A DNA stretch of 64,000 bases, from positions 17,112,001 to 17,176,000 of the forward strand of contig OZ024765.1 in assembly GCA_964016885.1 (NCBI GenBank), written 5' to 3'. This DNA is from Eledone cirrhosa (Eukaryota). Below the pieces are notes generated by a model. It saw only the letters and a list, made by a program, of their open reading frames with translations. It searched no databases and was not told where the DNA came from. A program made the position numbers and the translations under genes. Position 1 is the first letter of the stretch. The number at the start of each line of letters is the position of its first letter. Shown here in pieces: positions 9,517 to 61,797 of this stretch.

Positions 9517-10241
9517 CTAGGGTGGGTAAAATTCCCGAGATCCACGTACGAGTTCTCTACAGCGGTCTCTGTCCCTCATTATCGCAGCCATGTCCCGCGT
9601 CTCCAACAGACCAGTGTCTGTCCTTAGGGCATCAATATACGTTAACCTTGGTCTTCTCCTTCCATTGTGTCCATGTAGGGGCTCCCACAGGAGCACTGAG
9701 TGCAATGTCAACTCTGGATGTCGGTGAGCATGACCAGCTAATTTCAGTCTCCTCTGTGTCACTTTTGAGCTGACTTTTGGGATGCTCCCATACAGCTCTG
9801 AGTTTTTCATCCTCAGTGTATACTGATTAATGTTCAGAGCCATCCTCAGCATTCTCGTGCAGCACCCATCCACCATCTGAGTGAGTTTCATGGTCAGTGT
9901 CCAAGTCTCAGACCCGTACAGCAGCACAGACCCCACTACAGCAATGAAGAGGCGGATTTTCAGGCCTTTACGAAGGTCCGACTTCCACACCGATCTCAAG
10001 CTGTGGTACGCCGCCCAGGCTTTGCTCTTCCTCTCAACCACATCATCTTCCGTATTCCCAATCTTTGCTCCCAAATACAGGAAGTCCTGAACCAATTCTA
10101 GCGGCTTCCCGCCTACATTAGTGATCCCCTCTGGCTTCTCAACATTCTCTACCAGATATTTTGTTTAGTCTCATTCATTCTCAGCCCCACACTCATCGAC
10201 ACAGTCTCAACCTTCTGCATCAAATCCTCTGCCTCATTCAC
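9517..10241 (-). pseudogene. 5'-truncated RTE-clade LINE (RT thumb/C-terminus)
   Basis: GLRMNETK...(frameshift)...VQDFLYLG...SVLLYGSETWTLT...[34 protein letters not shown] are typical RTE C-terminal motifs. The stop codon runs directly into (TA)n, and both flanks are (TA)n. Confidence 0.85.
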
Positions 10242-57182: not shown

Positions 57183-57380
57183 TCCAGTTGACATTGCACT
57201 CAGTGCTCCTTTGGGAGCCCCTACATGGACACACTAGAAGAGGAAGACCAAGGTTAACGTATGTTGATGCCCTAAGGACAGACACTGGTCTGTTGGAGAC
57301 GCAGGACATGGCAGCGATAATGAGGGACAGAGACCGCTGGAGAGAACTCATCCATGGATGTCGGGAATTTTACCCGCCTT

Positions 57381-57382
<2 letters not shown>
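57183..57382 (+). pseudogene. 3' end fragment of the same RTE LINE as 9517
   Basis: [62 protein letters not shown], then (TA)n. Confidence 0.85.
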
Positions 57383-57437
<55 letters not shown>

Positions 57438-58171: not shown

Positions 58172-59330
58172 AATATATTCTACTACTGATGAACTACATA
58201 ATTCTGCTTTAAAAATTATAAACCTAATTAATATACACTTTTGAAATTAATATATAAACTATTTTTAATTTAGTTAACCTATAATTAATATTCTACTACT
58301 GATGAACTACATAATTTTGCTTTCCTTCTTACAAATATCATTTCCTAAAACTAATACCATTAAGTAAACATATATAATGCTTTAACTTCAGGTTATGACT
58401 ATGTTCCTTGAAAACTATATATATTTACTATTTCTCACTAGTAAATTTAATCCCCCCCCCAATAATTATATGTATATATAAGTGTATATGTGTGTGTATA
58501 TGTATGTGTATGTATGTATATATGCATGTATATATCTATGTATATATATATATATATATATGTGTATGTATATGTATATGTATGTGTGTATGTGTATATA
58601 TATGTATATATATAAGTGTATATATATATATATATGAGTGTATGTGTATATATATGTATATATATATATATATATGTATGAGTATATATATATATATTAT
58701 TTTTATATTCTTTTAATTTCCCCTTATCTTTAACAACACTTTTCAACTGCATCTAACTCTTATTTATCATATCTATATGTATTAGTATAATTTTATCAAT
58801 ATAAATATACCCATCAATTAAATTAATTTATATTCTTTTCATAGATGTATTTTTTTCACTAACATTCTTATCTTAAAACTTGAGTCACCTTAGATATTTG
58901 TATTGGCATTACTATTTTATAACAACAACTGCTTGTATACCTTTTACTGACCACCTGTCCTATTTTCACCCCTAAAATAAGCTTCAATTACTATTTTACC
59001 ATTTGGCCAATTATTAACTTTCTATTGGTTAATTCTAAACCTCTTACCAAACAGACAGAATATATTAGATCTTTGTTGGTTTTATTCAATGGAAAAATAA
59101 AATTATTTCTGAGGTCAGCATAAGACCTATTTCTTCCCTAAAATAATCCTTCATTCATAATATTCATTTCCATCCAAAACTGAAATCTACCTTCCTCTAC
59201 CCATAATTTAAGGTTCTTCTACAACTATATTACTATCCTGACCCTCACTATCTCTCAATTGGTCAATTCAAAACCTGTTCCCAAACAGACCTATTGTATT
59301 GAATCTTTGTTTTTTTCAATAAACAAGTAT

Positions 59331-59470
59331 CATTATTTCTGAAGACAGCATATATATGTGTAGGTATGTATATTCCCTCTGATAGTTTGTATAAATATTG
59401 TACATAGATCTATAGAATATGCATACCAGCTCTAACACTAATATATCCTAGAAACGATCGTAAAATGATG
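59331..59470 (+). ncRNA. Atypical type I hammerhead with a ~105-nt stem II domain
   Basis: CAUUAUUU-CUGAAGA-cagc...GGUAUGUAUAUUC.../...GAAUAUGCAUACC...ccua-GAAA-CGAUCG-UA^AAAUGAUG. 8-bp stem I, palindromic ACGAUCGU. Confidence 0.7.
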
Positions 59471-59586
59471 AATTGTTTTAATATAAGGAACTGTTTCTTT
59501 GTTTATTCATTATTTTATTAATTTATATACATACATATATATATATATATACATACATACATATATATATATATATACATACATAC

Positions 59587-60467: not shown

Positions 60468-61661
60468 CATACATACATATATATATACATACATATATAC
60501 ATAAATATATATGCATACATATATATATATACATACATATATACATACATACATATATACATAAATATATATGCATACATATATATATATACATACATAT
60601 ATACATAATAAAAAAAGCATACATATATATATAGATACATATATATACACACACATATACATAAATATATATGCATACATATATATAGAGATACATATAG
60701 ATACACACATATACATATGCATACATATATATATACATACATATATATACACACATATACATATGCATACATATATATATACATACATACACATATATAT
60801 ATATACATACATATATATATATACATACATATATATATATACATACATATATATATACACACATATATACACATATATATATATACATACATATATACAC
60901 ATAGATATATATATATACATACATATATACACATAGATATATATATATACATACATATATACACATAGATATATATATATATATACATACATATATACAC
61001 ACGCATATAGATACATAAATATATATGCATACATACATATATACACATATATATCTGCATACATACATACATATATACACACGCATATAGATACATAAAT
61101 ATATATGCATACATACATATATACACATATATATATGCATACATACATATATACACATATATATATATACATACATATATATATATATATACACATGTAC
61201 ACATATATATATATATGTATATATAAATATATATATTCCACCATCACAATTGAAGCCAACACCAATACACGCCCCAACACCACCAGCACCACCACCATCA
61301 CAACCACTTCCACCATAACACCACCAACACCATCACCACAACTACCCCCCCCCCCCCTCCACCAATATTCTAATTGGGTGCCGGCCCTAATTTCGATATC
61401 ATTATTAATTTATCTTGGAATTTTATCAGTATCACCATGGTCACCACACTTATTCGGCCCTGGTTACCAAGGTTACAATTCTAAAACAAAAAAAGCAGAC
61501 GTCATATTTGTAATTTTCTTTAGAACTATTTTAATTTATTTAATTAGCTAAAAACACCTGTAAACCCCCAAACACATCAACAAACATGGATATGTGTTTA
61601 TATATATAATATAAGTTGAAACAATGTAATGAAAAATCAAGTTATCAGAGATATACTTCAC

Positions 61662-61797
61662 TGCTTTACGATCGTTTCTAGGTGATGATAATACATTGTA
61701 GCTATAGTCCGTTATTGATCTATGTAAGGTTAGTTACAACATATCAGATAAAGAGAATATTTACTTACATGCGTATCACCAGCTGTTTTCAAAAGCA
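61662..61797 (-). ncRNA. Degenerate long-stem-II hammerhead (relative of 59331)
   Basis: UGCUU-UUGAAAA-cagcuGGUGAU...AUCACCua-GAAA-CGAUCG-UA^AAGCA; core mutated. Confidence 0.5.

Follow-up and report, generated by a model that had tools for sequence, protein, structure and literature searches.

A hammerhead ribozyme motif with a predicted stem II of about 105 nucleotides in a probable Penelope-like terminal repeat of Eledone cirrhosa

Identification of a long-armed hammerhead motif

In a stretch of 64,000 nucleotides from Eledone cirrhosa (GenBank assembly GCA_964016885.1, contig OZ024765.1, positions 17,112,001 to 17,176,000 of the forward strand; henceforth the window) we identified a type I hammerhead motif with an unusually long arm in place of the compact stem II. 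Our preferred reading, which we hold with moderate confidence, is that this is an intact-core type I hammerhead with a predicted stem II rod of 105-107 nt, that it is part of the pseudo-LTR (pLTR) of a Penelope-like retrotransposon, and that it would be cut after position 59462 only as a dimer or with the assistance of a protein. This reading builds on what the DNA directly displays, namely the core, the stems, a palindrome, three copies, the abundance of the repeat, compensating base changes and a mismatched position 4 in stem II. The features are collected in Table 1.

Table 1. Features of the long-armed hammerhead repeat and related elements in the window
Feature	Position	Strand	Remarks
Copy 1, complete long-armed type I hammerhead motif	59330..59471	+	sequence, fold, descriptor search
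Copy 1, stem I 5' strand	59330..59338	+	9-bp pairing to 59463-59471, one pair being U·G
Copy 1, core C3-A9	59339..59345	+	CUGAAGA; no variant among those listed
Copy 1, stem II region	59346..59450	+	105 nt: C·A, A-U, G-C, C·C, then interrupted rod, 35 predicted pairs
Copy 1, two overlapping splice-donor-like hexamers	59360..59369	+	putative; starts 59360 and 59364
Copy 1, tip module common to copy 2	59378..59410	+	UCUGAUA, hairpin, UACAUAGAUC
Copy 1, G12-A14, stem III and H17	59451..59462	+	8-nt palindromic stem III (59454-59461), H17 = A59462; predicted cut 3' of 59462
Element 3' tail	59472..59527	+	ends at (TA)n microsatellite; common to copy 3
Whole copy 1 repeat fragment	58690..59527	+	between two (TA)n tracts
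Upstream half copy	59109..59119	+	degenerate 5' core half and CAGC, without 3' half
Copy 2, diverged family	61662..61797	-	directly after (TA)n
Copy 2, tip module	61717..61748	-	donor-like hexamer from 61768; acceptor-like G residues 61720, 61702
Copy 3, copy 1 family, truncated at the 5' end	12798..12923	-	retains 3' arm, palindrome, 3' strand of stem I and tail
Tandem Penelope-like element of the window	~22950-30260	-	RT and C-terminal GIY-YIG; 822-aa open stretch cut by assembly gap
Six solo short-armed hammerheads	13046(-), 39740(+), 41245(-), 41390(+), 50532(-), 50770(-)		stem II regions 26-36 nt

An earlier note on this DNA had described a perfect core and a stem II domain of about 105 nt, and both descriptions are borne out: CUGAAGA stands at 59339-59345, GAAA at 59451-59454 and A59462 at H17, A15.1-U16.1 is present, and 105 nt separate the two core halves. 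The 13-bp helix that it had placed in the arm is likewise found (59363-59375 / 59415-59427), comprising 12 Watson-Crick pairs and one U·G, while stem I, given as 8 bp, in fact extends to 9 bp. The announced diverged relative at 61662-61797 was recovered on the minus strand; its core is UUGAAAA (61792-61786; U3-A8), its stem II region spans 107 nt (61785-61679), its H17 is 61667, its stem I has 5 bp, and its 3' half is the same as that of copy 1. A third, truncated copy had been placed near 12850-12920, and we found it, 5'-truncated, at ~12798-12923 on the minus strand, where it is embedded in the (TA)n tail belonging to a different hammerhead element; the alignment of its tail to the copy 1 family beats 2000 of 2000 shuffles.

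A hammerhead descriptor with the spacer set to 60-200 nt matches exactly copies 1 and 2 in the window; 150 block-wise shuffles average 0.047 matches, and 1/150 reaches two. A 15-mer common to the copies occurs three times versus 0.01 expected, and 0/100 shuffles reach three. With nhmmer only the three copies were found in the window, the next E-value being 0.32. No Rfam hammerhead family matches copy 1 or copy 2 at E<=10, which agrees with the suspicion that standard models would miss the variant; yet at the gathering score Rfam returns nothing across the whole window, and as it misses every short hammerhead there as well, being missed is not special to the long-armed form. Beyond the window, viral contigs gave no relatives (nor any of the window's own Penelope-type protein), metagenomes gave four matches, all lacking stem I, stem II and the palindrome and together close to chance expectation, and prokaryote genomes gave none in one search and two matches without an upstream core in another.

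Fold and covariation of the long arm

When the stem II regions of copies 1 and 2 are folded in isolation they share the same base, namely C·A, A-U, G-C and C·C, followed by a helix of 6 bp in copy 1 and 8 bp in copy 2, with pair probabilities of 0.72 and 0.79 in copy 1 and 0.66 and 0.72 in copy 2. The segment CAGC...CCUA, previously drawn as an unpaired CAGC...UA junction, is thus folded into this base in both copies. Similarly, the GGUGAU/AUCACC helix once proposed for stem II of copy 2 is seen only in a whole-motif fold with a mispaired core; in the register that matches copy 1 the helix is instead UGGUGAUA/UAUCAUCA, 8 bp with pair probabilities of 0.81-0.92. The predicted rod has 35 pairs in copy 1 and 38 in copy 2, and carries the same 4x3 internal loop under the terminal hairpin.

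The covariation that had been suspected between the copies is evident, with two sequences as its base in the long arm: stem I and the basal part of stem II are replaced and still pair, 5/6 pairs at stem II positions 5-10 (paired in both copies) are changed, and C3-G8 in the core of copy 1 corresponds to U3-A8 in copy 2, a compensatory change, while the CAGC and the 3' core half are the same despite the different stems. The core of copy 2 departs from CUGANGA in this compensatory manner, a point on which the earlier note is silent. U3-A8 is a natural, active hammerhead covariant in the accessible part of PMC3088659 (section 8), and the accessible text of PMC4209133 gives it as common in schistosome Penelope hammerheads. 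Taken together, sequence comparison supports the view that copies 1 and 2 represent a hammerhead-type motif under structural selection.

Of the features typical of type I hammerheads, the 3-8 pairing in the core, G12-A13-A14, A15.1-U16.1, H17 and an open-ended stem I are all present, and stem III is predicted to be stable as a palindromic dimer, not as a monomer hairpin. The 8-bp palindrome is favourable as a duplex (-10.0 kcal/mol) and unfavourable as a monomer hairpin (+1.4 to +2.4 kcal/mol), a known sign of dimer-type hammerheads; the predicted energy of the active fold exceeds that of the mispaired monomer minimum by 1.9 kcal/mol (copy 1) and 3.6 kcal/mol (copy 2). Both copies have C·A instead of a pair at 10.1-11.1, the base of stem II, and pairing starts at 10.2. 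G10.1-C11.1 is highly conserved in Penelope hammerheads as far as the available text of PMC4209133 goes, and U·U is the best-tolerated mismatch at this position according to the available part of PMC3088659; given the published natural exceptions, the C·A lowers the expected activity more than it lowers the case for hammerhead membership. An extended stem I was considered and dropped, as 69/300 shuffles are as good in copy 1 and only one of seven motifs reached 1/300.

Compared with shuffles, the whole-motif fold is matched in 3/200 cases for copy 1 and in 69/200 for copy 2, and the stem II region alone in 2/300 and 24/300, respectively. These values bear on whether the arm might be a neutral hairpin, or a microsatellite-derived loop insertion, in an ordinary hammerhead that was amplified, with the likeness of the tips due to descent. 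The fold of copy 2 being no better than shuffles would fit such an origin, as would the basal helix of copy 1, which consists of trivially pairing (AU)n and (GU)n/(AC)n-like runs, and the altered tips of some copies; but the basal helix of copy 2 is non-repetitive, the two arms agree in length (105 vs 107 nt) and in pairs (35 vs 38), and the identity of the tips exceeds that of the tails, which cannot be aligned. We consider a neutral insertion highly improbable and give it the least credence of the readings weighed here. The interior of stem II shows a likeness between copies 1 and 2 above that of shuffles (3/2000), whereas the 3' tails do not (485/2000), suggesting that the tip probably carries a signal. 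Two identities for the tip were tried and rejected: a SECIS element or K-turn (UGAU/AGAU might form a tandem G·A quartet) would require a flanking helix, bulge and apical adenines that are not matched in both copies, and Rfam was negative; and as a nested second hammerhead it has neither GAAA nor stem I. A GATA-type promoter motif acting in the DNA is a further possible reading of the tip.

Copies and variants in public assemblies

The carrier of the motif is a high-copy repeat. Public runs compared at 80% likeness under three organism labels yielded 1,700 repeat contigs in X1, which may not be independent of the window, 30 in X4 and 25 in X6, and one raw-read run had a single read for the repeat. 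Summed depth in X1, which is not a copy number, is ~0.25-0.5 million at the two core halves versus 2,000-36,000 upstream of 59263.

At least 12 variant sites fall within 59330-59471, which we classed against the predicted fold. Among those listed, five maintain or re-establish a pair (59375, 59425, 59439, 59440 and 59467), including a G>A change at 59467 that turns the stem I U·G of copy 1 into U-A, although transitions readily yield G·U pairs, which weakens this count; four lie at positions unpaired in the fold (59362, 59429-59431), and two break pairs at helix ends (59361, 59394). At H17 the only variant among those listed is A to U, still non-G, and the 26 core-proximal positions have no variant among those listed, which by chance would occur with a probability of ~0.09 and is not significant alone. 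The copy 1 of the window has private changes at 59327, 59429 and 59439-59440, and is hence a slightly decayed family member; in some copies the tip sequence is changed, as seen at loose ends.

A mismatch shared with short-armed neighbors

Scanning the window with a short spacer recovered 15 motifs versus 0.02 expected, nine of them in a 422-bp tandem array and six solo. The 105-nt arm is 3-4 times the length of stem II in these six short-armed neighbors. Together with copies 1 and 2 the six have an 8-nt palindromic or near-palindromic stem III and A17, so that H17 is non-G in 8/8 motifs. Across the eight, stem II positions 2, 3, 5, 6 and 7 are always paired (8/8) and position 4 never (0/8), being invariably C·C or C·U with the C on the 5' side; a C·A at position 1 is confined to the two long forms. 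The eight motifs make up five to six sequence families, and do not therefore amount to eight independent events.

Because the C·Y at position 4 is common to the six short neighbors, the long form falls into a broader subclass present in this window, probably of the Penelope type. The conserved C of CAGC accordingly reads as a feature of the class and the long arm as a family-specific extension, and the position-4 mismatch is a candidate loop 1 - loop 2 contact. Of the earlier suggestion of a possibly undescribed hammerhead variant, the part that stands is the ~105-nt stem II, which we did not find described in the accessible portions of the literature; the supposedly novel CAGC junction does not, its C·Y mismatch being shared locally. 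Several of the short-armed solo motifs adjoin inverted pieces of their own ends.

The carrier as a probable Penelope-like terminal repeat

The architecture of the repeat suggests that it is a pLTR of a Penelope-like retrotransposon; we class it as likely derived from such an element, not as a proven member. The hammerhead lies ~60 nt from the (TA)n-bounded 3' end of the repeat, and a (TA)n run begins 44-73 nt after the cut site in 6/8 motifs; copies 2 and 3 are 5'-truncated, and the targets are microsatellites. Within 58690..59527 (+) there is a partial tandem duplication, 58968-59122 being ~71% like 59199-59352, which is of pLTR size and holds only the 5' core half. The position of the hammerhead close to the 3' end, the truncation of copies at the 5' end, the insertion at microsatellites and the partial tandem repeat correspond to how pLTRs are built, and the inverted pieces beside the short-armed relatives represent a further trait of terminal repeats. 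No partner ribozyme with the palindrome stands in tandem with copy 1, the upstream repeat having the 5' half only. In the G-poor plus strand of 58690-58967, a strong bias, one minus-strand frame is stop-poor over its last 56 codons, with no protein match.

Beside copies 1-3, Pfam in six frames detected no RT or GIY-YIG remnant, tblastn and a profile (60 of 120 Penelope-type proteins) detected no Penelope ORF remnant, and a full HMMER scan of one frame near the long-armed repeat gave 0 hits; the reading frame of copy 1 past the cut site meets a stop after 18 codons. An origin from Naiad elements, which lack canonical hammerheads, was rejected after three octopod Naiad 3' ends compared by eye gave no match and term searches were negative. 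A non-LTR retrozyme was likewise set aside, since it would need a complete hammerhead in each tandem unit and the upstream unit has the 5' half only. Given that no ORF remnant was found, the dissimilar Naiad ends and the different hammerhead of the window's own Penelope element, the Penelope link is drawn from architecture.

That element encodes a protein whose best match is an Octopus vulgaris entry with 66% identity, and its pLTRs carry a minimal hammerhead (23156-23190 and 27453-27487), unlike the long-armed type, with a solo relative near 38322 (+). The window as a whole is AT-rich and full of (TA)n and (TACA)n tracts. It also holds head-to-head arrays of a 422-bp unit at 18706-20865 (-) and 20864-22451 (+), with 5.1 and 3.8 copies and 99-100% matches, whose nine compact type I hammerheads have U·U or C·U at 10.1-11.1 and are retrozyme-like. 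Fragments at 9517-10164 (-) and ~57200-57400 resemble the C-terminal part of a non-LTR retrotransposon ORF.

Splice-like signals in the arm

Scanning the arm with the splice donor and branch-point consensus showed that both copies have three elements in the same order, a donor-like hexamer followed by CUGAU and then UAG. This holds for the ribozyme strand alone, and the geometry is nearly equal, at 44-48 nt for copy 1 and 45-49 nt for copy 2. In copy 1 the branch-point-like CUGAU (A59382) and the acceptor-like UAG (G59407) belong to the tip module. This raises the possibility, to our mind rather doubtful, that the arm is a short spliceosomal intron in stem II, so that unspliced RNA would be long-armed and spliced mRNA would be short-armed, or dead as a ribozyme if the acceptor were at G12. 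CUGAU (5/5) and UACAUAG (7/7) are identical between the copies, compared with 5/13, 8/17 and 16/36 in neighboring segments. Under criteria set post hoc, 148 and 117 of the 3000 shuffles (~4-5% each) also contain the donor-branch-acceptor triple.

A donor in stem II or an A at 11.1 is seen in both long motifs and in 0/6 short ones, and A11.1-G12 provides both long motifs with a second possible acceptor, for an intron of 88-92 nt. Copy 2 without its 67-nt GU-AG segment would be left with a 40-nt hairpin, near the size of the short class; depending on the acceptor, the putative intron would be 44-49, 52-67 or 88-92 nt long. The U-rich tails of copies 1 and 2 could either of them be the 3' part of an intron with its acceptor beyond the copy end; that of copy 2 (61600-61661, -) has a second CUGAU followed by a U-rich tract. 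Most animal spliceosomes need introns longer than 44-49 nt, and both this length and a donor-branch distance of 18-24 nt fall below most such minima. The donors align locally but 0/6 globally, T59361A frequently alters the upstream donor of copy 1 (13-47% of depth), and the copy 1 donor is buried in the 13-bp helix; copy 3 lacks the acceptor that the 67-nt form would use, and G59429 is a private change of the window's copy 1. No joint skipping the putative intron was seen among the two contig joints listed, which represent DNA only, and several other motif readings had been tried before this one. A precedent exists in the Penelope of Drosophila virilis, for which the accessible literature reports a 75-bp pLTR intron ending at hammerhead helix I.

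Relationship to known hammerheads

The occurrence of hammerheads in Penelope-like elements is common and already known; neither the long arm nor the position-4 mismatch was found in the accessible print sources. In the available text of PMC4209133, the D. virilis-type pLTR hammerheads resemble the present motif in their type I topology, a palindromic helix III that implies dimers, an interrupted large helix II, U3-A8 and solo truncated ends. They differ in a helix II of 6-8 bp, as opposed to a region of 105-107 nt here, and in a G10.1-C11.1 pair and a single extra base after A9 where the long-armed copies have C·A and C·C mismatches and no linked ORF was found. The hammerheads of the Hydra and PLE-X clades of Penelope-like elements (PMC8557442 Files S1/S2, in the portions available) are alike in their (TA)n preference and in a ribozyme near the 3' end, and their rows frequently have a 10.1-11.1 mismatch (U·U; C·A in PLE-X1_cBra), like the long-armed copies. 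The longest stem II tabulated in the accessible part of PMC8557442 is, by our own count, ~55 nt (PLE-X1_sMoe), against 105-107 nt here; by eye, its accessible rows list no position-4 mismatch, and the palindrome has 0 hits in the supplement text, where line breaks could hide one.

The Poseidon element PAc of Anolis, in the accessible text of PMC11167929, likewise has a hammerhead in its pLTR, upstream of the site at which copies stop, but its ORF starts at stem II, while the long-armed copies have no ORF after the cut site. Non-LTR retrozymes (PMC7229834; bioRxiv 10.64898/2026.07.22.740005, in the parts available) are comparable as non-coding animal repeats with a type I hammerhead; their units, in contrast, are arranged head to tail with a ribozyme in each, and the three long-armed copies are solo ends. 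In the accessible text of the literature searched (including PMC6765202, PMC6155905, PMC13725137, PMC3846280, PMC2377424 and PMC5680766) neither a long stem II nor a cephalopod hammerhead turned up.

Proposed mechanism

By analogy with published Penelope hammerheads, the element would be transcribed as a tandem RNA, in which two ribozymes may pair via the 8-bp palindrome and then cleave 3' of H17, possibly only with the protein of the element. Reverse transcription would start a few dozen bases downstream of the cut, which would explain the point at which the copies end. The long arm would be peripheral to catalysis, its base kept for pairing, and the conserved tip may act as an additional terminal-repeat signal that the ribozyme encloses. 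The insertions seen in this window have probably decayed. The accessible text of PMC11167929 describes, for a Poseidon element, protein-assisted cleavage with an RT start downstream, along with the finding that cleavage is not needed for in vitro insertion.

This last observation also admits a reading in which the fold is kept for recognition by a protein of the element or the host and rarely or never cleaves, the tip being a binding site. It would accord with the C·A at 10.1-11.1 in copies 1 and 2 and the same 4x3 internal loop near both tips, with the absence of an effect of Poseidon catalytic mutants on in vitro insertion and of RNA-seq reads ending at the cut site (in the available text of PMC11167929), and with the weak in vitro activity of Penelope hammerheads (in that of PMC4209133). 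Nevertheless, the U3-A8 covariant and a non-G H17 in 8/8 motifs, along with the A-to-U variant, are what selection on the chemistry is expected to produce, and we judge pure recognition to be very unlikely.

Implications

The published descriptors use spacers of 7-17 nt, and up to 35-50 nt, in the accessible methods of PMC8557442. As short-spacer descriptors cannot see an arm of ~105 nt, which is roughly twice the longest stem II that we found tabulated in the accessible sources, censuses of ribozymes in invertebrate repeats may undercount, and this may extend to the claim that some clades lack hammerheads. Should the arm hold an intron, the unspliced long-armed form would be the one copied into the genome, an acceptor at A11.1-G12 would remove the catalytic G12, and intron retention and the hammerhead of a Penelope-like element would form one testable switch; the role of retained introns in Penelope-like elements would thereby become directly testable. 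The fixed C·Y at position 4 across five to six families offers a mutational handle on the folding of the weak dimer-type ribozymes.
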